This document shows positions 46,113 to 63,652 of a DNA stretch of 64,000 bases, piece by piece. The stretch is from Candidatus Hydrogenedentota bacterium. GTDB taxonomy: Bacteria; Hydrogenedentota; Hydrogenedentia; Hydrogenedentales; JAEUWI01. Every line of letters begins with the position of its first letter. The first letter of the stretch is position 1. Location: assembly GCA_034669905.1 (NCBI GenBank), contig JAXMOL010000001.1:96001-160000 (forward strand), read 5' to 3'. The notes under the pieces are model-generated. The model saw only the letters and a list, made by a program, of their open reading frames with translations, was not told where the DNA came from and did not search any database. A program made the position numbers and the translations under genes.

Positions 46113-47549
46113 CTAAAGCCCCAGCACACCCAGTATCTCCGGATTCTCCTCCTGCCACGTAACCACGTTGTGGCAACTCGTGCAGTCCTGGCTGATGATG
46201 TTTGCGCCATCGCGGCTGCTGTGACCATCATCGTGGCACCGAAAGCAGCCATCGAACTGGGTATGCCCATTGTGGTCCGGATAGGTCCCCCAACCAATAT
46301 CCATTGCGGGAAATATATTCTTCCGATAAATATCCTGAATCGCACGAATCGCTTCGTCCAGGGACTCGGCCCGTTCTGCCACAATCTCACCGTGGTTCTC
46401 CGCATAGAAGCCTTCCAGATGGGATTGGATGAATACCGTGGCATCTTCGGCATCAAGCGCCCCCTCCAGGGCGGCCAGTCCCGCCATTTTTACAGAGGGC
46501 AAGGTCTTATCAATCCGTCCTTCATCCAGGGCCTCGTTGAGTGCGGGCCCGGGCATCTTGAAGCGGTGGGTGGCCCGATTATGGCAGTCCGTACAGTCCA
46601 TTTGGCGGAGCGCCTCTTCAGGAATCTCGTTGCCCTCCTGAGAAAATCCGTCGGCATAATATTCGACGACCGAGCCATCCGGATTTACCGAGCGTATGTA
46701 GCCGATTTCCTCCCGTTTGTCGTCGGTGGAGTAATAGCGTATTTCCCGGCCTGGCGCCAGGTGCCACGTATGAATACCGGAGCCCGCGGCGTCGCGGCCT
46801 CCCACGTGCATGAGCAGGACGGACGTCAGGGGCGTATTGTTTTCGTCGGAGGCATAATCCGTGGTCACCTTCAGCACATCGCCCAAATCCATTTCGGGAT
46901 TGTGACACTCCCCGCAGGTTTCCTCCGCCTGGGCCAGGTTGTGAACGGGCACGGGTATGGGGGTTTCGTAGCTTCCGGTAAGCACCCCATAGACCTGATT
47001 GAGCCCATTCAACTTCGCATGGACCAGTGCGGGTACCCCCGGCCCGATGTGGCAATCCACGCACTTGACCATGGCGTGGGGAGAATTCATATGGGCGGTA
47101 AATTCAGGTTCCATCACCGTGTGACAGGTTGTCCCGCAAAACGCGACAGACTCCATATAGACGGCCCCCTCGTAGCTGATAAGGGAGATCAACATGAAGT
47201 TGAAGGCGGTCAGAAAACCGACGATGATGGCGAGCCGTTGAATGCGCGGGCTGTTGAAATCCAGTTTGATGTGGGCGGGTTCGTCGCTGTTGAGCGCCCG
47301 GCGACGGCGGCGGTCCCACCAGGCCCCCACGGGGATTATCAGCAATCCCAAGACGAATACGGCGGGCAACAGCAGATAGGTCAGAAGCCCGATGTAGGGC
47401 GAAAGGGGCACGCCTAAAAGGGTCATCACCATAAATACCAGAATGGCAAGGGCGCTCACGGTGGTCAGGCTACTACCGAATAGGGTAATCCAGTTACGCC
47501 AAATCAACTGCCCTGCGGCTCCCAGCCAGCTTTTCTCTGGACGATTCAT
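46113..47549 (-). CDS. NapC/NirT-like membrane-anchored multiheme cytochrome c
   Basis: Three N-terminal TM helices; FCGTTCHTVM.PE; CVDCHIG; CGECH, CTDCH, CFRCH, CTSCH (6 heme motifs). Confidence 0.85.
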   Translation of the reverse strand: MNRPEKSWLGAAGQLIWRNWITLFGSSLTTVSALAILVFMVMTLLGVPLSPYIGLLTYLLLPAVFVLGLLIIPVGAWWDRRRRRALNSDEPAHIKLDFNSPRIQRLAIIVGFLTAFNFMLISLISYEGAVYMESVAFCGTTCHTVMEPEFTAHMNSPHAMVKCVDCHIGPGVPALVHAKLNGLNQVYGVLTGSYETPIPVPVHNLAQAEETCGECHNPEMDLGDVLKVTTDYASDENNTPLTSVLLMHVGGRDAAGSGIHTWHLAPGREIRYYSTDDKREEIGYIRSVNPDGSVVEYYADGFSQEGNEIPEEALRQMDCTDCHNRATHRFKMPGPALNEALDEGRIDKTLPSVKMAGLAALEGALDAEDATVFIQSHLEGFYAENHGEIVAERAESLDEAIRAIQDIYRKNIFPAMDIGWGTYPDHNGHTQFDGCFRCHDDGHSSRDGANIISQDCTSCHNVVTWQEENPEILGVLGL

Positions 47550-47590
47550 CCGTCTATTTTCTCCCCGCGTTCCGTATGCTTTTAGGGGAA

Positions 47591-47617
47591 GGGGAAGGTG
47601 AACGAGTCACCTTCCCC
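47591..47617. terminator. Intergenic hairpin between the decaheme and NapC-like genes
   Basis: GGGGAAGGTGA/TCACCTTCCCC 11-bp stem. Confidence 0.5.
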
Positions 47618-47639
47618 ACACTCCATTAACCTTGTGCTA

Positions 47640-49751
47640 TCACGGCCCCATATTGTGGACATCAATGACGGCGAAGTCCGCGCCGCTGTCGTGACAAACG
47701 GAGCAGGATTCTACCCGTGCACCGGGATCCGTATTGAGGATGGCGTGCACTTCGGCCACCAGACTATCGTGACAGGATGTGCAGGAGGCGCGCTCCGGCA
47801 ACTTCTCGGAGACGATTGTGGTGCCGTCAGAGATAACGGTCGAGATGGCATCCATGGACAGGGGAATCTCGAAAGAACCGTCCACGTGACACATCTCACA
47901 GTTTCTCAAATCACCGGGGAATTCGATCTCGGTGAAGTCGTGGGCCGTACCGCCGAATCCGAAGACCGTAAACGCCATCTCCAACTCGGAGCCACGGTGA
48001 ATCTTATGGATCATGTCTTTGAAGTTAATCGTCTCCGGCGGCAATTGCTCCTCCGTGCGCCGTGCGATATCGGTCCCATTGGGGTTGTGGCACATCACAC
48101 AGCTATCCACACCGACCCGAAGGCTTCCGTGGAACCGCAGCTCGCTGTGACAGGCGTTGCACTTGGCGTCATCGATGATCTGACGACGTTCCACCGGCTC
48201 ACTATTGTTCACCGTGAAAATCATCCGTCCATTGGACGCCGTCCCCTGGGTAATCGTCTCTCCCAGGAGGTCAAAGCGCACCCGACCTTCCATCGCTACC
48301 GCGAAGGTCGCTTCGCTGTCGACCGGCACCTGTTCTGTGAACGTGTAGCTGAAGGTGCCATCCCCGTTGTCCGTCGCGTTGGCCGCTGTGATCGTTTCGC
48401 GGAAAGCCTGTTCATAATCGCTTACCGGATAGGCCAGGGTCGCGGCAACGGTAGCCAGCTCGCTCAGGTCGCCATAGGCTTCCCCAGCGCCATTTTCCGC
48501 CGTGAAATTTATCGTAACTGCAGCACCGGTCTCCAGGGCTTCGGTGGTCACGCTATTCACGGTCAAGGACAGGCCCGGAGCAATCGGGCTATCGGTAGCA
48601 AGACGGTGGGCCTCCAGAATGGGGGCAGGCCCCGGGGCCGTGGGGGTGTGACACAGTGCGCACAGACTGTTGTCCACCTGCTGGCCCGCCACGTGGTTGG
48701 TGAAGCCCTCCGGCGTGGCCAGGGGCTCGCCAAACCAGGCGCGATCATGACAGGAAGCGCAGCCTTCGATGGTCGGTGTCGTCATGTAAATGTCGGACAT
48801 GGCCGCATCGGTATGACACGCCGTACAATTCTCCACCGGCTGGGGAAAATGCACGTCGGAATAGTCATGCACCGAATTGCGGAAGCCAATAATCTGATAG
48901 GCCACACCTGCCTGCACGCTTGGCAGACCGGCGCCCTGGTGAATCTTGTGGATCATCTCGGCAAAGTCAACGCTATTGCCGGAATTCGCATCCACGGAAC
49001 CCTGATTATGGCAGAGGATACACAACTGGACTTCCCGACGGGCACCGCCGTGGATTGCCAACCGGGTATGACATACGTTGCAGGTCTCGGTATTCACGAT
49101 CTCCCGTGAACCCAACGCTGTGCCTCCATCGGGACGGAAAGCCAGTACCGGATTGGCGGGATACTCTAATTCATCAATCGGGAACAACCGTTCCAACTGT
49201 CCCCCCACCTGATGCGTCGCATCCCGCGGGTAGTCGGCGGGCAGGCTGCTTGCAAAGCGGTAGGAAAATTCCCCGTCATCGCCCTGGACCACTCCGCCCA
49301 GTCGGGCGCTGTCGTAGGTCGCTTGCGTGCCCTCGTCACCGGTCCCCGCGGTCCCGTCGGGGTCTTCGGTTTGGGAAATGTAGCTCACATACCGCGCGCT
49401 ACTGCCTTCGGGCGGTGCCTGCTCCAGATAGGCCAGAATGAAACGGACGTCGGAAAGCTCACGAAGGGGAATCGGTTCACCCGCGTCATCCTGCGCCGTA
49501 AAGTGCACCACCGGGCGCAAGTCAGCGGGAATCTCGACCGACAGGATATCCACCTGTAGCCCCGGCGAAGTCGAAACGGGCGTTACCATCACCGGATCCG
49601 GGTCGGGATCGGGGTCGGGATCAGGGTCCGGATCGGGGTCGGGGGTCGTTATCAGAGGACACCCGGCCAGTAACAGGACCGCGAGCAACGGGGTCCAGAG
49701 GCCCCACCATCCCCCGTTGCGTTCATGTGTTTTCGGTGTATACCCAATCAC
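47640..49751 (-). CDS. OmcA/MtrC-family decaheme cytochrome lipoprotein
   Basis: Lipobox LLAGC, (PD)n linker; 10 CxxCH in two pentaheme blocks separated by a beta domain; MIHKIH twice. Confidence 0.9.
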   Translation of the reverse strand: MIGYTPKTHERNGGWWGLWTPLLAVLLLAGCPLITTPDPDPDPDPDPDPDPDPVMVTPVSTSPGLQVDILSVEIPADLRPVVHFTAQDDAGEPIPLRELSDVRFILAYLEQAPPEGSSARYVSYISQTEDPDGTAGTGDEGTQATYDSARLGGVVQGDDGEFSYRFASSLPADYPRDATHQVGGQLERLFPIDELEYPANPVLAFRPDGGTALGSREIVNTETCNVCHTRLAIHGGARREVQLCILCHNQGSVDANSGNSVDFAEMIHKIHQGAGLPSVQAGVAYQIIGFRNSVHDYSDVHFPQPVENCTACHTDAAMSDIYMTTPTIEGCASCHDRAWFGEPLATPEGFTNHVAGQQVDNSLCALCHTPTAPGPAPILEAHRLATDSPIAPGLSLTVNSVTTEALETGAAVTINFTAENGAGEAYGDLSELATVAATLAYPVSDYEQAFRETITAANATDNGDGTFSYTFTEQVPVDSEATFAVAMEGRVRFDLLGETITQGTASNGRMIFTVNNSEPVERRQIIDDAKCNACHSELRFHGSLRVGVDSCVMCHNPNGTDIARRTEEQLPPETINFKDMIHKIHRGSELEMAFTVFGFGGTAHDFTEIEFPGDLRNCEMCHVDGSFEIPLSMDAISTVISDGTTIVSEKLPERASCTSCHDSLVAEVHAILNTDPGARVESCSVCHDSGADFAVIDVHNMGP

Positions 49752-49892
49752 AACGACCTCCCTTCACAGAATCACTATCTGATTCTCGTAGTGCCAAGAT
49801 TCGCTCTCAGCGCGGCGATTAAACGGCTCCCGGGCTCTGGAAAGTGCCCACACGAACGACCTTGAGCATCTCCCTACTGTCATATAGAGGAA

Positions 49893-49909
49893 AGCTTAAG
49901 TCGTGCCAA
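49893..49909 (-). promoter_or_regulatory. Putative sigma54 (-24/-12) promoter for the decaheme/NapC operon
   Basis: Minus strand TTGGCACGACTTAAGCT (GG-N10-GC), about 140 nt upstream of the start codon. Confidence 0.55.
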
Positions 49910-50015
49910 CTTTCCTGATATACCCCGATCTCGTTCCGGACCCTGCGACATCGCCCAAAGAAGGGGCGATGCCATGGCATTGGCGGAACGTCCGGGTGTG
50001 CCAAGAGTGTCCATT

Positions 50016-50031
50016 AGTACAGTACTGTACT
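50016..50031. promoter_or_regulatory. Perfect 16-bp palindrome, candidate regulator site
   Basis: AGTACAGTACTGTACT in the divergent intergenic region. Confidence 0.45.
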
Positions 50032-50081
50032 GCCCACAATTGCGCAAGTACCATCTTAAGCCGATGCGCGGAGGGAAGCCC

Positions 50082-50110
50082 TTGACAGCATACCCGAACC
50101 GTGATAGCGT
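50082..50110 (+). promoter_or_regulatory. Putative sigma70 promoter for the porin-cytochrome operon
   Basis: TTGACA-17 nt-TAGCGT with extended -10 TG. Confidence 0.5.
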
Positions 50111-50284
50111 GAGTGGACGTTACAGGCGGGCGCACCAGTGTCCTGTTGGCACGGAATTCTCTATAGCGACTTACAGATCGACGTACGCCACGTGATATTT
50201 CACGATACTCGGAAGTCTTTTACACGACCGAATCGGAGGTTGTCGTGTCAATGTGTCGGTACCACGTAGAGGGAATGGTGTGCC

Positions 50285-51325
50285 GTGAGCAATACAGCTG
50301 ACAAGCGAACTGGACGGGCCATCGCTTCGGGGATTCGCCGGGGGAGTTGGGTCCTTTGCCTGCTCGTTCTGGGAGTCTTTTCCCTGGGGGCAGACAGCTG
50401 TCAGAACTCTTCGCTCGGGCCCGGCGAAGTGGGTAGCGCCACCTGTCTGGCCTGTCACGATGGCCGTAGCGCCAGTAACCACCTGGAATTTCTGGACAGC
50501 CCTCACCAGGGTTTGTCGTGCGAGTCTTGCCATGGCCCCGGCCTGACCCACGTGCAACAGGGGGGCCGATTGGGGCTCTTCATCGACAATCCCAATCGTT
50601 ATCCCTTTGACACGCGGCACACGGCCTGCATCACCTGCCACAGCGACATCGTCTCGCCCGTTGGAATCGGTGCCCAGGGCTTTCTTGCGACCAACCATTT
50701 CCTGGAAGGCGCCGCAACCTGCACCGATTGCCACGATGTGCACAAGCAGGGGGGCATGCTGATCAGCAGCACGTCACCCGCACGGTTCGGGAATGCAAAC
50801 TACGCCACCCTCTGCGGGAGCTGTCACGTCGATCAAGTGGAACAATTCTCGCTGAGCGGCCATGCCCAAAAAGACGTCGCGACGTGCTCCAGTTGCCACG
50901 ACATGCACGCGGGTGACATGTTCCGTGCAGACCCCACAACCAATCGCCTTTGCCTCCAATGCCATCAGAGTTTTGCCCTGGGATTTCAACGGGATGTGGA
51001 CGTGGATTTCCATACGGGCGACATGCACCCCGTCGATCCGGCAGGTTCCGGTTCAAGCCGATGCACCGGGTGTCACTTGCCACCCAACGCAGGCAGCTCG
51101 GCGGTTCAGCCAAGCCATGATCACACCCTCTTTACAATCCCGCCGATTGCCAGTAATGACGCCGTCGCAATGGGTGTGGAACCCGCTCCCCCCAATTCCT
51201 GTGCAGGCGTAACGGGGTGTCATGATCCCGTACAGCCGAATTCCGGTCCCCCTTACGACGAAAATGACCTGGAAAGCAATACGCGACTGCAGTCGCTCTA
51301 CGAAATCATCGGAGCACGGCCATGA
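50285..51325 (+). CDS. Multiheme cytochrome c (8 CxxCH plus one CX5CH), DmsE/MtrA-like N-terminus, possible lipoprotein
   Basis: VGSATCLACH, CESCHGPG, CITCH, CTDCH, CGSCH, CSSCH, CLQCH, CTGCH, CAGVTGCH. Confidence 0.85.
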   Translation: MSNTADKRTGRAIASGIRRGSWVLCLLVLGVFSLGADSCQNSSLGPGEVGSATCLACHDGRSASNHLEFLDSPHQGLSCESCHGPGLTHVQQGGRLGLFIDNPNRYPFDTRHTACITCHSDIVSPVGIGAQGFLATNHFLEGAATCTDCHDVHKQGGMLISSTSPARFGNANYATLCGSCHVDQVEQFSLSGHAQKDVATCSSCHDMHAGDMFRADPTTNRLCLQCHQSFALGFQRDVDVDFHTGDMHPVDPAGSGSSRCTGCHLPPNAGSSAVQPSHDHTLFTIPPIASNDAVAMGVEPAPPNSCAGVTGCHDPVQPNSGPPYDENDLESNTRLQSLYEIIGARP

Positions 51326-52977
51326 AGGGTGTCCCAAGCCCACTATCCCCGAGGAGACCCTTTGGCAGAAAAATCGTTACGGAGCTGAACGCCCTGAACT
51401 CGTACCTGGGAAAAGGATTGGGGGCCATACTGCTTTGCCTGCTCCTGCTTACCTGCTCCCCCGCGCCGTGCTTCGCCGAGGCGGAAGACGGGGCGCCCGC
51501 AGCGGAGGCCACAGAAAACACCCAGGACGACACCGCCTCGGACACAGCGGAGGAGGAGGCCGTGCTGCCAACGGACTCGGACACTGCGGCAGGCAACGGA
51601 ACACGACGTTGGTACCGGGGCACCTTTGAAACGGAGATGGACACGGTTTTCTCTCGCAGCGACGAGGACATCGATTTCAGTCAGTTTCTCCGGTTAGAGG
51701 TAGACCCCCCTCAATACAGTCGCCTGCACCTCCGGGGCTCGCTCTGGCTACATCAGGATTTGAGTTCGGATAGGGACAAACCAAACACACTGCGGGACAT
51801 CAACGATGCTTCGAGTGCCGATGTTCAGGCGCGCTTGCTCTATCTCTACGCGAAGATCGACGATGCCCTGGGTACCAACTCCGAGTTAAGAATCGGACGT
51901 CAGCGGATCCAGGAGGGCGCCACCTACAATCGTATCGACGGGCTCTATGGCCGAAAGCGCGTCGGGCAGTGGGAAGGCTATGCCTTTGTGGGAGCCCGCG
52001 CCTCGATATACCGGGACACCACCGATGATCTGGTGCTCGGTGGTGGCCTTGCATGGATCCCCACGCCCCATACCCGTATTGCCCTGGATGGTTACTATGC
52101 GGAGGAAAGTCGCTACGGAGTATCCGACAGAAGTCGCCGGTTCGGGGGCTGGATACGCCCGGTGGCGTCGGAGCTTAATGACAGTAAGACGACCCTGAGT
52201 CTGTGGCACAATTTCGGTGTGAACACCCGGCTCTTCGCCCGTATCGGTATGTTGGGTAGTGACGTGGACGAGCTGTCGCTGAGTCTGAATGGGTACATAC
52301 CCCGGCTGGACCTCCTCTACGACCTCCACTACCGCCAGCTGTTTGAAACGACGGGCGACACCACGGCCGACCTCTCCCCCTTCTACCAGATTCTCGGTCA
52401 GTACCGGGAACACCAGACCCTCTACCTGGGCCTCCACCGCCCCTTGACGGAGTCGGTCACCCTTACCCTGGAAGGTGAGATTCGCAATGCAGAGAACGAT
52501 GACTTTTACTCGGGAAACCGAGACTATGTTCGGGTTGGCACCGTGTTGTACGTGGATGACGTCTTTCAGGAGGTCGACGTCTCGACTTCCCTGGAGTACT
52601 GGGATGTCTCTGGCGGTGAAGGCACCTGGACAGTGACCGGAGAAATAAGCCGCTCGTGGGGCACCGTGGACGGGCGCTTCGGCGTCGATTACGTCCGCTA
52701 CAAGGATCGTGTCGTGGAGTATGACCAGCGCGCGGCCCTGGTAGACGCGGCCCTGGTGGCCTTTGTACCCGGCATCTATCCCGGCTTCTCTTACGCGGCC
52801 CGCAGGGCCAGCACCCGGATTGTGGATACCCGGGAAAATGTCTACAGCGTGTATGCCGAGGTGGAGTGGGCCTTTCAGGAGGATCAGGATGTCTACACCA
52901 AGATTTCCTTTGAAGAGGACGATAGCCCCGATTCGCCCTATTGGCGAATCCGCGCCGGCTATCGGCTGCGTTTTTAG
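51322..52977 (+). CDS. Predicted outer-membrane beta-barrel (porin of a porin-cytochrome complex)
   Basis: Signal peptide, amphipathic beta strands, LRIGRQ, C-terminal YRLRF; lies between two multiheme genes. Confidence 0.78.
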   Translation: MKGVPSPLSPRRPFGRKIVTELNALNSYLGKGLGAILLCLLLLTCSPAPCFAEAEDGAPAAEATENTQDDTASDTAEEEAVLPTDSDTAAGNGTRRWYRGTFETEMDTVFSRSDEDIDFSQFLRLEVDPPQYSRLHLRGSLWLHQDLSSDRDKPNTLRDINDASSADVQARLLYLYAKIDDALGTNSELRIGRQRIQEGATYNRIDGLYGRKRVGQWEGYAFVGARASIYRDTTDDLVLGGGLAWIPTPHTRIALDGYYAEESRYGVSDRSRRFGGWIRPVASELNDSKTTLSLWHNFGVNTRLFARIGMLGSDVDELSLSLNGYIPRLDLLYDLHYRQLFETTGDTTADLSPFYQILGQYREHQTLYLGLHRPLTESVTLTLEGEIRNAENDDFYSGNRDYVRVGTVLYVDDVFQEVDVSTSLEYWDVSGGEGTWTVTGEISRSWGTVDGRFGVDYVRYKDRVVEYDQRAALVDAALVAFVPGIYPGFSYAARRASTRIVDTRENVYSVYAEVEWAFQEDQDVYTKISFEEDDSPDSPYWRIRAGYRLRF

Positions 52978-52994
52978 TGAGTAAAGGAGCAACC

Positions 52995-54068
52995 ATGACG
53001 CACAGGCCTGGATTTCGCGGGATCGCGTTGGCGATGATCGCATTGTTTGGCGTCACCGTTGCCTCCGATGCGGCCCTGTTCGGCCGATCGGGGAAATCGG
53101 TGGACCGCGGCCTGAAATCGGGCCACAATGCCCACATCGAGCAGCAATTGGACTGTGCCACCTGTCACGTGTGGGAAGAAAACCGGCATGTAATGCCAGG
53201 ACACAACCTGTGCAGTATATGCCACGAGATCGATGAAACTGCGACCGACAAGGCTTCCTGTAACTTCTGCCACACCCGGGAGGACCAAAGTGTCGGTCCC
53301 GTCATCAAACGGATGAGTGTGGAAACGATTTTTGGGCATGAAGCCCACCTGGACGTTTCTCTGGATTGTATGGAATGTCACAAGACGCCCGGTGAAATAC
53401 CGGATCTGCCGAAGGGGCCACTCATGCCCTGGTGCATGACCTGCCACGCGACGTCAGAACCACCCAAGCTGGAATCGGGCCTGCCCGACCGGGCCTTTGC
53501 GTCGAATGACTGTGCCGTCTGCCACCGCGAACTCAGCCTGGAAACGCGGCCCCAGTTTCGGGGCGGCGCCCGGATCGCCCACGATGCACCCGATATCTGG
53601 TTGAAGACCCACGGCCGGGAAGCCCAGTTTGACCCCCAGTATTGTGCGATGTGCCATGATACGGTCGCGACCTGTGAAGATTGTCACAGCCGCATGAAGC
53701 CCGACAACCACACGATAGCGTGGCGCCGTAAACCCCACGGATTGCGGGCGGTCATCGATCAGAACAACTGTGCGGTTTGCCATGAAGAAGATTCGTGTAT
53801 CAAGTGCCATGAAAAAACCAAACCGACCAGCCACCGGGCTGGATTCGGCGGCTCGCTCAACCGACATTGTGTCTCGTGTCACTATCCCCCCCAGGAAAGT
53901 TCCTGCACCGCATGTCACCAGAATATCGAGCACCGTAAGGCCCGCCGGTCGCCCCATGGACTGGGCATCTACCCGGTCAACTGTGCCGCCTGCCATCCGG
54001 GCGGCCTGCCCAACCGCGCGCCCCATCTTGTAAACAATTCGGTAAGCTGCCGGACCTGCCATGAATAG
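52995..54068 (+). CDS. Periplasmic 14-heme cytochrome c (c3/c7-like)
   Basis: AAGGAG RBS; signal peptide; 14 CxxCH motifs; FGHEAH. Confidence 0.88.
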   Translation: MTHRPGFRGIALAMIALFGVTVASDAALFGRSGKSVDRGLKSGHNAHIEQQLDCATCHVWEENRHVMPGHNLCSICHEIDETATDKASCNFCHTREDQSVGPVIKRMSVETIFGHEAHLDVSLDCMECHKTPGEIPDLPKGPLMPWCMTCHATSEPPKLESGLPDRAFASNDCAVCHRELSLETRPQFRGGARIAHDAPDIWLKTHGREAQFDPQYCAMCHDTVATCEDCHSRMKPDNHTIAWRRKPHGLRAVIDQNNCAVCHEEDSCIKCHEKTKPTSHRAGFGGSLNRHCVSCHYPPQESSCTACHQNIEHRKARRSPHGLGIYPVNCAACHPGGLPNRAPHLVNNSVSCRTCHE

Positions 54069-54138
54069 CTTGTTACTTAGTTACCGCGTCTGCCCTGCGG
54101 GACTGCCCGCTCGGGTCGGCGCCAGGAAAGGAAAACCT

Positions 54139-54738
54139 ATGCATACGCTTTCACGGAATGCCCTCATCACCCTCAGCCTCCTGCTTGCTGCCAGCCTGGT
54201 CCAGGCCGAGGAGGCCAAAGACTTCATTGGCCATGACCAATGTAAAGTCTGCCACAACAAGAAGCCGGAAGGAGCCCAGTGGGACGTCTGGAAGGCGATG
54301 AAACACGCCAACGCCTTTGAAGCCCTCAAGAGTGATGCAGCCAAGAAAATTGGGGAAGAGCGGGGCCTCGCCAAGCCCCCCCACGAAGCCCCGGAATGCG
54401 TGAAGTGCCACGTGACGGGCTATAATCTGGAAAAAATGGAAGTGCCCGCCAAGATCAAGATGGCCGACGGCGTCCAGTGTGAAACCTGCCACGGGGCGGG
54501 GGCCGCGCATGTGGCCGACGGTCGCGATGTAATGTTTAAGAAGAAGACCGCAGACGAAATCGACTGGACGGCCCACCTGAAGAAGGTGGAGGAAGCGACC
54601 TGCCTGGCCTGCCATAACGAAGAGAGCCCCACCTGGAACCCGGAACAATTTACCCGGGAGGATGGCACGAAGGTGGGATTCGACTTTGAGCAGGCCAAGG
54701 AAATCGTTTCCCATCCCAACCCAACCAAGGCCAAGTAA
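54139..54738 (+). CDS. Tetraheme cytochrome c554-like protein
   Basis: Signal peptide; FIG...CKVCH, W...KHA.A, CVKCHVTG, GVQCETCHG.G..H, CLACH. Confidence 0.85.
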   Translation: MHTLSRNALITLSLLLAASLVQAEEAKDFIGHDQCKVCHNKKPEGAQWDVWKAMKHANAFEALKSDAAKKIGEERGLAKPPHEAPECVKCHVTGYNLEKMEVPAKIKMADGVQCETCHGAGAAHVADGRDVMFKKKTADEIDWTAHLKKVEEATCLACHNEESPTWNPEQFTREDGTKVGFDFEQAKEIVSHPNPTKAK

Positions 54739-54910
54739 AAGGTGGTCAGGCCCCTCGCGGAGCGATAGGGCGACGGAACGCCGGACGGACGGGCTAAGTG
54801 GCGCATGCCCGGGTCCGGCGGGGCGAACACGCATTTCATGGATAGTTCAAGCGGCCAAGGTACGCAACCGTTACCTTGGCCGCTTTATTCATTAAGGTCG
54901 CGAAAGCGTA

Positions 54911-55900
54911 TCAGGGGAAATCACTTCCCGGCCACATCACGCTTTGATAGAACCCACTGGCAATACCCTCCTCGCCGGGTGCGAAGATGTGGTTCGCAAT
55001 GTGCAGAGCGATGCCTGCCGCATTGATGGGGAACTGGCCGCCGGTGGGCAGGGGCGCGCTTTCGAATACCACCGTACCCGTCGATTCTCCCGGATACTTG
55101 AAGAAGGCCACGTGCCCGTCGGCAAAGAGCACATTGGCACCACCCGGCACATGGTTGAAGCTCTCGGCCGCATCCGCAATGTTGTCAAGCATAATTGCCA
55201 ACGTCGATTGCGAAGCTGCCGACGCAGCAGGGTTATTGATGTCGGTTATGAAAAACCGTTCAACCCCTTCCCGGAGCCGCAGCGCGCGATCGTAGCCACC
55301 GGGCAAGGGCACCGCGAAGTCCCAGTCTTCCTCGACCCGATAGACATTCTCGTAGATGCGCGCACCGAAGTCCTGCACACTGGCGTAGAACGCGGCCGAC
55401 TGGGCCGGCGTTTGAACCATTTCGTTACTGATGGCCCATCCCAGGTAGGTGTAGGGATGACCCAGGAACTCACACGGCTCAATGGCGCCACTGTTGGTGA
55501 ACCCGGGCGTATCCACGTAATTATCGGAACCCACGTTTCCCCCATCATAGGTGCTCAGTGCATCGCCGGTCGTTGAGGCGGCACTCGGGCAAATGAGGAT
55601 GTTGGCATCATTCATGTATTCGGGATAGACCTGCTCTCCATCGAAGATGGTGTCGAGGGAAGAGACAGTACCATCGCATCGTCTGGTCTTAATGGCGGGA
55701 AACTTTTCTCCCCGGCTTTCGTTGGCATACATCTTAAAGATGATCCCAAACTGCTTCAGGTTATTCTGGCAGCTTGCCCGACGGGCTGCTTCCCGGGCAC
55801 GGGCCAGGGCCGGCAGCAGGATGGCTGCGAGAATTCCAATGATGGCAATGACCACCAACAATTCGATCAGGGTAAATCCCCGGGTGGAATGTTTCTTCAT
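54911..55900 (-). CDS. DUF1559 prepilin-type N-terminal methylation protein with H-X9-DG C-terminal motif
   Basis: [60 protein letters not shown]. Confidence 0.93.
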
Positions 55901-55905
55901 GAAAT

Positions 55906-56041
55906 CGCTTCCTTGGAAATAGCCGTGCGGACGCACCACGGTTCCATACCCGTGTTGGTCGACGTTACGCACGGCAGACGATCGGACCCAAGATGGTCCG
56001 GCAAGTGAATAAATCAGCGTGTCTGCATCCAAAGAGAAGCG
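55906..56041 (-). promoter_or_regulatory. Predicted SD-sequestering RNA structure controlled by the upstream RAPP leader
   Basis: CGCUUCUCUUUGGA (56041-56028) can pair with UCCAAGGAAGCG (55917-55906, includes the SD); inner stems GCCGTGCG/CGCACGGC and CGGACC/GGTCCG. Confidence 0.65.
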
Positions 56042-56457
56042 GGTGGTGCCCGGGCCTGCCGGGCTGTGGAAACGCCCCGGCCCCGGTGGTCGACATAAGC
56101 CCCGTGTCCGACTGGGCCAACGTCTATGGCCGCCGTTGCCACCGTGCCCGCACCGACGTGCAAGACCATGGTGGCCGCACTGAAATAGGTGTTTTGCAAG
56201 GGCTCGGGTGTAGGCTCCGGCGTGTCCTCCCGGGCTGGAGTTGTGGGCTCCGGCGCGTGATGGTGGTGGGGCTCGCCCTCCCCATGGCGGTGCACCATGC
56301 CCCCGGCACCATGTTCGTGAACCAACGCGCCGTGGTGGTGGGGCGTGGAAAAGAGCGAGAATCCCGTAAGAATCCGAAACGCCAGCAGGACCACGACCAG
56401 GAAAACAATGTCGGAGAAGTCAGCGCTGCCCGCACGCGCCCTGGCCCCACGAAGCAT
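56014..56457 (-). CDS. His-rich membrane-anchored leader peptide with C-terminal RAPP arrest motif (DUF2946/CruR/CutF-like architecture)
   Basis: [57 protein letters not shown] eight residues before the stop; start uncertain (56457 or 56502). Confidence 0.7.
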
Positions 56458-57148
56458 CGTGGACACGGCAAGGGTAGTACGGGGGACAAATTTCAAGGTC
56501 ATGCCTCTCTGGATGGCGCACACGTGGTCTTCATGCGGGGCGGGTTGGTTTTTCCACTCTGCCGGGGTGGAACGGGACGGGCTCGCTGAACCACCCTCCC
56601 CTAAACTGTATCGGCACGTCAGCGATGCGCCGTGCTCCGACGCGAATCGCCACCGTATTCTGAAAAATTCGAAGGGGTGCCCACCGGGGTGTAACACAGC
56701 GCCCGGGTGGGTGCACTACCTTGTAGAACGCAGCGAAACTTTAGCGACGCTGCGGGGATAAATAACCCAATACAACACAAAATTGAATCGACACCATGCA
56801 CCCGCTTTCCGTACCGCGGGTTTCTCCAAACAACGCCTGCCGTATGCAGGCTAACGGGCAGACCAGTCCCTTCGACGTCTCTCCAGGCAGGGGTTCGGCC
56901 TATCTCCACCGACTCCCCTGTTGACGTGTGTACTGGCAACGCTTGACCAGCGTGTTGCTGCCCACATCCCCGCCTGGCTCCGGTACTCCTCCCCCTCCCG
57001 TACCCACACCACCGCCGGAGCCAGGCACTCCCTTTTCAGGCAAGGAGGTGCCATCCATTAGCGACGTAGAGGATGCCCGCGCTAGTGGTTTGAATCATGC
57101 GGATGAGCGATTATTTTGCGGCGGAGCATTCACCAAATTCGATAATAT

Positions 57149-57183
57149 ACTCCCCTCCTTGGAGGGGAATGGTTAGGCGGGTC
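57149..57183. repeat. Partial copy of the 43515 REP-like element
   Basis: ACTCCCCTCCTTGGAGGGG identical to 43515-43533. Confidence 0.6.
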
Positions 57184-57232
57184 GAATAAACGCTGCTGGC
57201 AGAATAAACTCCCCTGACTTTGATTCAGACCA

Positions 57233-58171
57233 TTAGTCTGACTTCAGCAAGCCCGCTTTACGCTTGCGCCAGGTGTCGTAGAAGACCAGCGCCACAATCA
57301 ACACGCCCACCAGCACTTGCTGCCACGACGTGTCGATATCTTCCAGGTTGCAAAAATTCTGCAAGACATACATGATCAGCGCACCGGCCACGGCCGCGAT
57401 GGCTCCGCCTTCACCGCCCATGAGACTGGCCCCACCAATGACGCAGGCCGCAATCGTATGCAGCTCGTACATTTCGGCCGCCGTGGGTGAGCCAATACTG
57501 GTCTTGGCGGCCAACATCATGCCGCCGAAACCGGCCATCAGGCCACAGAGCGTATAGGCCCGAATCAGCACCCAATCCACCGGGATGCCCGAGAGCCGTG
57601 CGGCCTGTCGGTTCCCCCCCACGGAATAAAGAGAACGGCCGAATCGGGTGAAGGCGAGCATGAGGGCATAGCCCGTTGCGAAGACGGCCACGATGACCAC
57701 CGGAATACGCCAGTCGCGGGTCTCACTGAGCCAACTCAGCGAGTCGGGCAATCCGAAAACCGGGTTGCCGCCAGAGACCCAGAGGGCGAGGCCCCGGGCC
57801 ACCATCATCATACCCAGCGTAACGATAAAGGGTGCAATGCGGCCCTTCGCCACCAGGACGCCGTTGGTGAGGCCACAGGCCGCCCCCACGCCGCAGCCGG
57901 CGAGAACACCCACGGGCATGGGCATACCGGATTTCATGGCCAGACAGCCCACCACACCCGCCAGCGCCGCCACACTCCCGACGGACAAATCGATGCCCGC
58001 CGTGAGTATGACAAGAAGCTGGCCAAGGGCGATAATGCCCACCACCGACGCCCGGCCCGCCACGGACTGGAGGTTGCCGCTGGTGCGGAAACTCTCCGAG
58101 TACAGGGCCAGGCAAATACAGAGACCCGCCAGGATAAAGAGCGGCGAGTGTTTGGCTATAAACTGCTTCAT
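57233..58171 (-). CDS. Sugar ABC transporter permease (RbsC-like)
   Basis: ILTAGIDLSVGS, PFIVTLG, TRFGRSLYSVGGN..AARLSGI, YEL..IAACVIGGASL.GG. Confidence 0.92.
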   Translation of the reverse strand: MKQFIAKHSPLFILAGLCICLALYSESFRTSGNLQSVAGRASVVGIIALGQLLVILTAGIDLSVGSVAALAGVVGCLAMKSGMPMPVGVLAGCGVGAACGLTNGVLVAKGRIAPFIVTLGMMMVARGLALWVSGGNPVFGLPDSLSWLSETRDWRIPVVIVAVFATGYALMLAFTRFGRSLYSVGGNRQAARLSGIPVDWVLIRAYTLCGLMAGFGGMMLAAKTSIGSPTAAEMYELHTIAACVIGGASLMGGEGGAIAAVAGALIMYVLQNFCNLEDIDTSWQQVLVGVLIVALVFYDTWRKRKAGLLKSD

Positions 58172-62680: not shown

Positions 62681-63652
62681 ATGAAGATCCAACGTGGATT
62701 CACGCTGATCGAGTTGTTGGTGGTTATCGCCATTATAGGCATTTTAGCCGCCATCCTTCTACCTGCCCTCGCCCGCGCACGGGAAGCCGCACGCCGCGCC
62801 TCCTGCCAGAACAACCTCAAACAGTGGGGCCTGGTCTTCACCATGTATGCCAACGAGAGTGAAGGCGAAACGTACCCCCGCATGCAGACCTCGTGGGAAG
62901 CCATCCATGACTGCGACACGGACACCGAGGTGTATCCGGCCGTCCCCTTCGTCGGCGCACCGACCCATTGGCTCAATCCCCAGTTTGATTCGGTCTACCC
63001 CGAATACCTCAGCGATGGGGGTATCGTGGTCTGCCCCTCCAATTCCAGCTGGAGTCCCGACGACTTCTTCCAGGGCGCCCGTGGCATCAATGAAGTCAGC
63101 AAAGTCTGCTTTGCGCCCAATCCCGGACCCAGCTTTGGCCAGTTTGACAATAAACGGGGCCTGGCCCAGGTGGCGGAAAATTATTTCTACACCGGCTATG
63201 TGCTCGACCAGGTCGATGATTTCTCGCCCCAGGAAGCCATTTCGGTCCTCGAACCAGCCTCCACGGAAACCGGTCCGGCCCAGCTGATCTGGACCATGAA
63301 CCTGGCCATTGGCCACTTCTTCGGCGACGTGGTCGGACAGGACATTGAGCTGGGCACTACGGCGCCAGGTGCGGGTAACGCAGGGGGCGACACGGTCTTA
63401 CGCCTCCGCGACGGCATCGAGCGCTTCCTCATCACCGACATCAACAACCCGGGTGCCAGCGCGCAGGCCCAGAGCACGGTGTGGGTCATGGGGGATCGAC
63501 TGAGCACCTATGCAGCCGAATTCAACCACATCCCCGGTGGGGCTAACGTGCTCTACATGGACGGCCATGTGGAATTTATTCGCTATGAAGACGCCGCCCC
63601 CGCCGTTTCGGGTGTCGCCAAGGTCTTCGGCGAGCTTTCCCTTCACAGCTAA
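62681..63652 (+). CDS. DUF1559 prepilin-type protein with H-X9-DG motif
   Basis: [25 protein letters not shown]...; [17 protein letters not shown]. Confidence 0.93.

Follow-up and report, generated by a model that had tools for sequence, protein, structure and literature searches.

We examined a two-gene unit on the minus strand of a 64,000-nucleotide stretch of DNA from a Candidatus Hydrogenedentota bacterium (GenBank assembly GCA_034669905.1, contig JAXMOL010000001.1, positions 96,001 to 160,000), hereafter called the window, whose first letter is position 1. The unit begins with a short open reading frame (ORF; 56014..56502) for a protein of 162 residues, P0001, which we call the leader and which is followed, after a spacer of 113 nt, by a gene for a DUF1559 or prepilin-type protein of 329 residues, P0002 (54911..55900). 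P0002 was assigned by matches to Pfam (DUF1559/SBP_bac_10, 48.1 bits with a cut-off of 23.3; N_methyl, 36.6 bits with a cut-off of 21.2) and to NCBIfam (TIGR02532 and TIGR04294, the latter named for an H-X9-DG motif), and its AlphaFold2 model, built from 24 sequences, had a mean predicted local distance difference test score (pLDDT) of 67.5. DUF1559, with 74 genes in R. baltica and 68 in P. limnophila, ranks among the largest sets of paralogues of unknown function in Planctomycetes-like genomes. P0001 has no match to any Pfam family. With moderate confidence, we read it as a metal-responsive leader that would arrest its own ribosome at a RAPP motif and thereby open the DUF1559 gene's Shine-Dalgarno (SD) sequence.

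A first-pass annotation of the window had described the leader as an ORF with a hydrophobic segment, a cluster of 11 His and RAPP codons at 56052-56041, and all of these features are present as claimed; the spacer between the last clustered His and R151, given there as about 65 residues, measures 68. The start codon is uncertain and may be the ATG at 56502 or a TTG at codon 3, which has the better spacing to GAGAGG. A basic N-terminus precedes the hydrophobic segment (I32-L50; 56353..56409; Kyte-Doolittle mean 2.56), which is predicted to be a signal anchor in an N-in/C-out orientation, with three Lys or Arg in the 15 residues before it and none after. R43, within this segment, is invariant in the 14-sequence alignment A8 and also in alignment A1. 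The His cluster (H55-H82; 56257..56340) contains 11 of the 14 His of the protein, arranged as a core motif, H-x-H-G-x3-H-x-H-x2-G-G-x2-H-x-H, followed by HHHH, and leads into a linker rich in Pro, Glu and Thr. There is no Cys in P0001. Residues Y106-F107-S108 (56179..56187), followed by a mildly hydrophobic stretch, lie 42 residues before R151. The RAPP motif itself occupies residues 151-154 (codons CGG GCA CCA CCC; 56041..56052) and is the predicted arrest site, with the P site at 56046-56044 and the A site at 56043-56041 by analogy with the toeprint of CruR (PMC12992588). The UGA stop codon (56014..56016) comes 8 codons after RAPP. Across the whole genome, R[AG]PP within the last 35 residues occurred in 400 of 79,921 six-frame segments of at least 50 residues (0.5%).

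We then considered whether the leader is a gene at all. In a search of 41 related genomes, the leader ORF was found in three other Hydrogenedentota genomes, G007 (52% identity), G003 and G001, and a profile search added an orthologue in G013, which belongs to a second genus. The leader had been expected to be conserved upstream of DUF1559 genes, and this expectation was borne out in all four of these genomes, where it lies directly upstream of the orthologous DUF1559 gene; the orthologues behind it are 78-92% identical to P0002 where measured (92% in G007). An alignment-based search of genome contigs yielded one further locus, L057, in a Hydrogenedentota metagenome-assembled genome close to G007. 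Compared with G007, the leader kept its frame at 61% nucleotide identity, with a ratio of nonsynonymous to synonymous substitution rates (dN/dS) of 0.22 at a saturated dS of 1.66, while dN/dS of the DUF1559 gene was 0.05. Overlapping open frames occur on both strands of this G+C-rich DNA (for example, 55993-56589 on the plus strand, 198 residues), and the ORF is rarely called by gene finders, as might be expected if it were a chance open frame. We give this idea almost no credence, because conservation of the leader frame and of its motifs refutes it, and the antisense frame has neither a Pfam match nor a counterpart of at least 80 residues in G007. By its conservation, the leader ORF is a real coding gene.

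We next turned to the RNA between the arrest motif and the DUF1559 start codon, where the first-pass annotation had proposed a helix of 12 pairs with a 2-nt bulge that takes in the SD of the DUF1559 gene, its arms brought together by two internal stems. All of these elements appear in the unconstrained minimum free energy (MFE) structure of 55885-56065 on the minus strand (-67.3 kcal/mol, z = -2.37; 4 of 200 dinucleotide shuffles were as stable). The anti-SD arm, CGCUUCUCUUUGGA (56028..56041), opens with the final base of the second Pro codon and continues through codons +1 to +5 after RAPP, and the SD arm, UCCAAGGAAGCG (55906..55917), holds the SD AAGGAAG. The 12 pairs are formed by 56041-56035 with 55906-55912 and by 56032-56028 with 55913-55917, on either side of the bulge at 56034-56033, and both arms are joined by two stem-loops (55922..56000), one formed by 56000-55995 with 55988-55983 and the other, which has an inner hairpin, by 55975-55968 with 55929-55922. 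We compared the 34 nt that begin at the R codon with every other 34-nt segment of leader and spacer for complementarity to the SD region (ATG-22 to +2) and found it to be the best complement among 129 segments (itself and 128 others); 2% of its dinucleotide shuffles equalled this complementarity.

The position of the helix is suited to a ribosome paused at RAPP. The partner of the SD core GGAAG is the stretch +8 to +12, numbered from the base that opens the first Pro codon; it falls inside the mRNA channel of a ribosome with both Pro codons in its P and A sites, and the whole of the SD partner mass (1.0) lies inside the ribosome footprint. As had been anticipated for a fold computed with and without this footprint, the computed cost of opening the ribosome-binding site (ATG-16 to +4) fell from 10.8 kcal/mol in the free mRNA to 5.1 kcal/mol with a ribosome at RAPP, and in the partition function the probability that AAGGAAGC is unpaired rose from 0.02 to 0.48. 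We infer that a ribosome at the stop codon would already have freed the 5' half of the anti-SD arm, so that the location of the helix would let it respond to a pause at RAPP and not to normal termination.

The most informative comparison is that between the window's genome (G000) and G007. The two share 40-71% of their nucleotides from 56703 to 55929, a stretch that takes in some 190 nt ahead of the leader, all of the leader and the spacer as far as the SD. In the flanks, made up of the permease gene, the intergenic DNA upstream and the DUF1559 gene, identity is 76-99%. By this pattern the leader cassette is either a hypervariable island or a segment that was replaced. After RAPP the two peptides are entirely different (ASLWMQTR in the window, GNFQTHTS in G007), and the anti-SD/SD stretch is 51-57% identical. 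In G007, the best complement of its own SD among 129 segments is again the RNA beginning with the final base of the second Pro codon, through the pair GGCAACUUCC/GGAAGUUACC. This retention of a best-complement anti-SD in different letters is the strongest comparative argument for the helix, and the pair of genomes constitutes a natural experiment in which the cassette has diverged and every functional mark has been kept. In addition, a 98%-identical contig of run X3 carries three substitutions in the spacer, all on unpaired bases (55921, 55942 and 55948), which may be taken as weak support for the fold.

Relatives of the window's leader fall into a family that we refer to as His-type. A full search with a hidden Markov model (HMM) of ten His-type leaders against 1.84 billion representative proteins returned 29 members at E <= 0.001, and for 22 the E-value was 1e-10 or below. 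Only three were returned when 5.8 billion proteins were searched from word seeds, and for this reason we conclude that the family, which is invisible to Pfam, is rarely called by gene finders and poorly connected. A search of the ESM Atlas returned unnamed clusters only. Across the 29 aligned members H55, H57, G58, G67, H71, R151, P153 and P154 are invariant and Y106 is nearly so; a regular expression for the core His motif matched 20 of 30 His-type sequences. The distances are more regular than the residues: every one of the 30 sequences has its Y-[YF]-[CS] site N-terminal of R[AGD]PP by 42 or 43 residues, measured to the R, and the residues in between vary freely. RAPP lies 1-11 residues from the stop codon in 25 of 26 distinct leader and DUF1559 modules, which we collected from the loci of profile searches of a phylum sample, and up to 32 residues from it among the 30 His-type sequences. 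The His-only profile matched 7 of the 135 genomes in this sample, all in one family. A degenerate DNA pattern for the His motif gave 119 stretches in metagenome contigs, and leader architecture was found in none of the 80 loci fetched; these were ruled out as leaders and are generic His/Gly repeats, a class that the chance estimate had ignored. Four of these contigs (L101, L106, L113 and L117) encode proteins of 278-572 residues with motifs resembling HxHGGxxHxHxHGGxxHxH and without leader architecture.

A His motif conserved like a metal site, in a protein under purifying selection, could also belong to a stable small membrane protein, for example one that serves the DUF1559 protein as a chaperone or as a metal-binding partner in the periplasm, in which RAPP would at most pace translation and no switch would exist. 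There is some precedent in the title of the first CutF paper, according to which maturation of CutO requires the cutF product (PMC8456105). We nevertheless regard this as quite unlikely. Outside its motifs the leader protein is nearly free to vary, at 22% mean column identity in the alignment of 29 members and at the low nucleotide identity to G007 described above; the distance to RAPP varies by no more than one residue and the motif stays near the stop codon, which is the pattern of a ruler between sensor and ribosome and not of a folded domain; and the peptide after RAPP is unconserved, while the complementarity of the RNA to the SD is conserved.

These features of an arrest leader recur in a second group of leaders that carry cysteines. 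The window's genome contains 54 genes with pilin-type N-termini; upstream of six of them lies a frame that closes with R[AG]P[PG], and five such frames are convincing: two are His-type (the window's own and one on contig C43) and three are CxxC leaders (C12 and C19, with CC...CAFC, and C60, with HHHEGDEHCWYC). The CxxC leaders scored 24.0, 21.7 and 15.0 bits against PF11162, the DUF2946 family (gathering threshold 23.7), and 4 of 13 Cys-type leaders had some match to it. A mixed leader profile matched 11 of the 135 phylum-sample genomes. Beyond the 26 modules, further leaders were found in G013, followed by DUF1559, in G014, followed by a TonB-dependent receptor, and on G006:C19, followed by an unknown ORF of 468 residues. 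In addition, contig C388 of G001 (L007/L019) carries two tandem leader and DUF1559 modules on one strand, the first of a GYYSP type and the second of an NYYCA type.

In a MAFFT alignment, the YFS or YYC of His-type leaders falls in the columns of the second half of CAFC or CWYC, so that Y106-F107-S108 of the window aligns with the second Cys of the CxxC motif. The window has YFSA at this site (aligned as T-Y-F-S), the CxxC having been lost, and the orthologues of G003 and G001 keep one Cys (YFCL and YYCA). The spacing from this site to RAPP is 44 in Cys-type and 42-43 in His-type leaders; over 31 leader rows it ranged from 41 to 47 and was 42-45 in 29, and of the two outliers one, L025 (VCLSL), was dropped as a false match and the other, L036 on the plus strand (HDYCG, spacing 47), is doubtful. 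The two types share the RAPP end, the ruler, the same genomes and a related downstream gene, and they differ in their sensor motifs: Cys-type leaders carry R-A-[FL]-[IV]-P-G-x-C-A-T-Q ... CC ... C-A-[FL]-C, whereas the window type carries H-x-H-G ... G-G-x2-H-x-H and no CxxC. The DUF1559 proteins behind them are 43-54% identical and occupy one tree neighbourhood. In a quick maximum-likelihood tree of 70 DUF1559 proteins, for which branch supports were from the Shimodaira-Hasegawa-like approximate likelihood-ratio test (SH-aLRT) only, the window's clade consists of four His-led proteins (support 100) and is nested in a clade of 18 rows (support 96) with nine Cys-led, seven His-led and two leaderless members; the starred branches of this tree force at least three changes of leader type. 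Upstream of five leaderless DUF1559 genes in leader-associated clades we found no missed leader. We read these relationships as sensor exchange within one evolving module.

Two leaders of known function resemble that of the window most closely. CutF, upstream of cutO in Rhodobacter capsulatus, follows the plan predicted here for the window: the leader is exported, bears a metal motif in its periplasmic part and a proline-based arrest motif at its C-terminus, and an mRNA structure shields the ribosome-binding site of the next gene. In this system a stem-loop shields the SD of cutO and stalling opens it (bioRxiv 10.1101/2025.02.05.636593). CutF differs in that it senses copper through CxxxC and further Cys, arrests at PPP in a manner dependent on elongation factor P (EF-P) and has a multicopper oxidase as its target (bioRxiv 10.1101/2025.02.05.636593), whereas the window's leader has a mature part without Cys, a His motif by the membrane, RAPP and a DUF1559 pilin-like gene as its putative target. 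CruR (Bp2923), upstream of bfrG in Bordetella pertussis, shares with the window an export signal, a fixed distance between sensor and RAPP (45 residues, as against 42), a long spacer, a RAPP a few residues before the stop codon and its place as the first gene of the unit, and its layout recurs in the His-type leader of G014, which heads a TonB-dependent receptor. CruR differs by its CXXC, its relief by copper, its match to PF11162 and its action through Rho-dependent termination (Roy et al., PMC9426467), in place of which the window has YFSA at the sensor site, no PF11162 match and the anti-SD helix. The first-pass annotation had stated that RAPP-type motifs stall ribosomes and that CxxC leaders, CruR and CutF among them, regulate downstream copper genes this way; as a route to the SD, this fits CutF with its SD-shielding stem-loop and not CruR. 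The direction of the metal effect also differs between the two, as metal prolongs arrest in the model for CutF and relieves it in that for CruR. RAPP and RGPP have been described as robust arrest cores, and the arrest of CruR, shown in vitro, places its pair of Pro codons at the P and A sites (PMC12992588).

By the same logic as that shown for CutF-cutO, the window's ORF would encode a co-translationally exported leader peptide whose conserved C-terminal RAPP arrests its own ribosome. In the free mRNA, the SD region of the DUF1559 gene would be shut by pairing with the codons just after RAPP; once a ribosome is arrested at RAP|P, it would cover the anti-SD nucleotides and leave the DUF1559 gene translatable, as in SD-sequestering leader switches of the CutF-cutO and SecM-secA type. 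The length of the arrest would probably be set by the fate of the exported N-terminal part, which, instead of the CxxC known from CruR and CutF, would bear the strictly conserved His motif on the outside next to the membrane.

Several observations weigh against this proposal. Even when a ribosome occupies RAPP, the fold predicts weak pairing of the window's SD core with a UUCC in the DUF1559 codons, which accounts for an unpaired probability of only 0.48. Full folding of the G007 sequence leaves its SD unsequestered, with an opening cost of 4.1 kcal/mol in the free and 5.0 kcal/mol in the stalled state, and in the complement test the anti-SD was absent or insignificant in the G003 and G001 orthologues. 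Over the 26 modules, the opening cost falls by at least 3 kcal/mol in only nine. Between the His motif and the arrest site there are 80-100 residues, a geometry unlike that of CxxC. P0001 has no match to PF11162 at E <= 1, only 3 of the 29 His-type members match it weakly (best E 0.0087), and hhalign comparisons of His-type with Cys-type leaders gave probabilities of 0.3% (E 0.21) and 2.3% (E 0.02), through the RAPP end only. For the downstream protein, a Foldseek search of the P0002 model against the PDB gave no match at E <= 0.001 and pilin helices only, and a PDB sequence search with P0002 likewise matched only the N-terminal pilin helix; we claim no metal role for this target.

Because of the missing PF11162 match, the weak family matches and the low hhalign probabilities, we do not file P0001 as a member of DUF2946. 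That family is defined by a CXXC and a RAPP 45 residues apart, a distance conserved within 1-2 residues, and has an export signal with N-in/C-out topology in more than 95% of its members (PMC9426467). P0001 has RAPP near its stop codon and, as a prediction, the export-signal architecture, and the His-type ruler is fixed as well, though 2-3 residues shorter than the 45 of CruR and measured from a site that is no longer CxxC. DUF2946 leaders also head their units, with a long spacer and copper-homeostasis genes behind it; P0001 comes first as well, with its 113-nt spacer, but the gene behind it encodes a DUF1559 protein, and the link to metals is made only by neighbouring genes in G003 and G014. 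We regard P0001 as built like a DUF2946 member, and most likely it works like one.

We then explored how general the anti-SD is. The RAPP-adjacent segment was the single best SD complement in 7 of the 26 modules (the window, L006, L018, L024, L026, L033 and L035), and in two others fewer than 6% of the remaining segments were as good; for the leaders of G013 and G014 the corresponding values were 7% (of 123 other segments in G013) and 5%. Modules with a RAPP-adjacent anti-SD span at least six DUF1559 lineages and three taxonomic families, and the partner of the SD lies mainly in the ribosome footprint in 9 of 26. In 14 of the 26, more than 30% of segments were as good as the RAPP-adjacent one, and these showed no anti-SD signal. 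Within the window's own orthologue group, the helix that had been expected to recur in relatives was found in G007 and G013, each time with a different sequence, and not in G003 or G001. The anti-SD helix is recurrent and not universal, and we do not take it as a rule for the family.

Modules without the helix raise the question of whether the same arrest peptide might have a transcriptional output, such that the stalled ribosome keeps Rho off the spacer and its release leads to termination before the DUF1559 gene. Rho-dependent termination is the mechanism shown for the prototype, CruR (PMC9426467), and a C/G ratio of at least 1.9 in the 60 nt after RAPP (genome 95th percentile, 1.92) was found in 9 of 26 modules, including the G003 orthologue (2.3), which has no anti-SD. 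For the window, we consider this route unlikely: its 60 nt after RAPP have a C/G ratio of 1.1 (27% C, 23% G) and are mostly base-paired, and would therefore make a poor Rho loading site, while its anti-SD helix is specific and strong. Other elements did not emerge from the sequence around the unit. An Rfam search of 54500-57500 gave two matches only, both below the gathering threshold and taken as chance (RF01090, 21.9 against 45; RF01704, 16.3 against 33), and a promoter and terminator scan gave no promoter-like sites and two terminator-like sites against 3.0 expected, none within the spacer.

Returning to the proposed metal-responsive leader, we investigated the genes beside its relatives. 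In G003 (locus L056; G003:C13, 2845-11050), the orthologous module lies directly on one side of a gene for a heavy-metal P1B ATPase and a second His-type module directly on the other, the order being an ABC ATPase, an ABC-2 permease, a 335-residue protein, the His-type leader, its DUF1559 gene (with a product ending in HEAGEGGHHHP), the P1B ATPase, and then a leader and a DUF1559 gene that are both of the A-type. This ATPase matched TIGR01525 with 551 bits and TIGR01512 with 488 bits, above the cut-off, and the copper subfamily with 334 bits, below its cut-off of 397; by these scores it is a Zn/Cd/Co-type enzyme. The module on contig C43 of the window's genome likewise has the ABC, ABC-2 and TPR-like genes of L056 ahead of it. 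At L182 (G014:C311, 1291-3474), the His-type leader (HAHGGRTHAHADGGYAHGH ... DYCS ... GRAPPAA) heads a TonB-dependent receptor (Plug, 46.1 bits). On the strength of the chemistry of the invariant His motif, the ATPase neighbourhood in G003 and the TonB-receptor context in G014, the likely input of the sensor is a divalent transition metal, among which Zn, Ni, Co and Cu(II) are indistinguishable.

A metal need not be involved if the leader instead monitored export or insertion by sensing force, as SecM, MifM, ApdA and ApdP do, and reported on Sec/YidC or prepilin capacity. The ApdA/ApdP class is recognised by a transmembrane segment combined with RAPP at the C-terminus (PMC7897499, PMC10987492), and its members share with the window's leader a RAPP core, an N-terminal membrane or signal segment and the position of an upstream ORF (PMC7897499, PMC10951233), and the downstream product is here itself an exported, prepilin-type protein. 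ApdA and ApdP, however, monitor genes of the SecDF/YidC type and have no metal motif (PMC7897499, PMC10951233), and the gene downstream of our leader is not a component of a localisation machine. Moreover, the five invariant His and Gly positions, the heavy-metal ATPase and TonB-receptor neighbours and the CxxC sisters all point to a ligand. We therefore judge a purely force-sensing monitor to be very unlikely.

The DUF1559 proteins themselves also vary with the type of leader. Their C-terminal tails are rich in Met, Gly and His in six of six proteins behind CAFCN leaders (L024, L032, L033, L046, L047 and L050) and read HEAG(H/E)G(G)HxHP in four of four behind PYYCP, AYFCG and CWYC leaders (L020, L022, L025 and L026). 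These tails may be metal-binding and match the sensor type, which we put forward as a lead only, the proteins coming from few lineages of kin. The window's own DUF1559 protein has no Met- or His-rich tail.

The first-pass annotation had supposed that the pairing of such a leader with a DUF1559 gene was undescribed. This does not hold, as the source data for Figure 4B of Fujiwara et al. (2025) list pairs of RAPP leaders with DUF1559 genes, the entry 'DUF1559 domain-containing protein' having 112 RAPP against 68 AAPP upstream ORFs (adjusted p 1.05e-31; PMC12992588, supplement file 8). Two of the His-type paralogues found here are identical, letter for letter, to entries in the upstream-ORF list of that study (PMC12992588). 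Its main text contains neither 'DUF1559' nor 'pilin', and the main text of the DUF2946 study, which places a few members of that family in Planctomycetes, contains neither 'pilin' nor 'SBP_bac' (PMC9426467). A full-text search for literature naming DUF1559 returned none on its regulation or on metals.

To our knowledge, the Cys-free, His-type form of the leader has not been described. New in this work are the exchange of sensor, the exactness of the ruler and the hypervariability of the cassette; the pairing and the principle were already known.

Two arrest peptides are known to sense a metal, CruR and CutF; the metal is copper in each, and each relies on cysteines. If the window's leader works as proposed, with a His motif replacing the cysteines while ruler and RAPP are kept, then the sensor of such peptides would be exchangeable and the principle would extend to other metals; the leader also ties a regulatory input to DUF1559, a family of unknown function. 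Taken further, His-type leaders might form a separate, unannotated family of transmembrane arrest peptides that descended from CxxC (DUF2946-like) leaders by sensor exchange and that senses a metal other than Cu(I), of the divalent kind (for example Zn, Ni or Co), outside the cytoplasm; the cassette, as a hypervariable island, might retune sensor and anti-SD together, and the DUF1559 targets might handle metals, with tails that match the sensor chemistry. This combined picture is possible, though we hold it on the doubtful side, and if true it would provide the first functional handle on the very large DUF1559 family.

Lastly, we surveyed the surroundings of the unit in the window. Directly after the ABC permease gene, 57082-57235 consists of repeat units resembling repetitive extragenic palindromes (REP/REPIN-like), with 13 matches in the window's genome and 17 in G007. 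We had considered a separate structured RNA in the 546 nt that follow the permease gene and rejected it, since the first 154 nt are these REP/REPIN-like units and the rest is conserved no more than the flanking genes. A second gene with DUF1559 and N_methyl matches lies at 62681-63652 on the plus strand and is not among the six with an upstream RxPP frame. On the other side, a cluster of multihaem cytochrome genes (46113-54738) with MtrC/MtrF-like domains (PF22113, 195 bits, at 47640-49751) converges on the DUF1559 gene.

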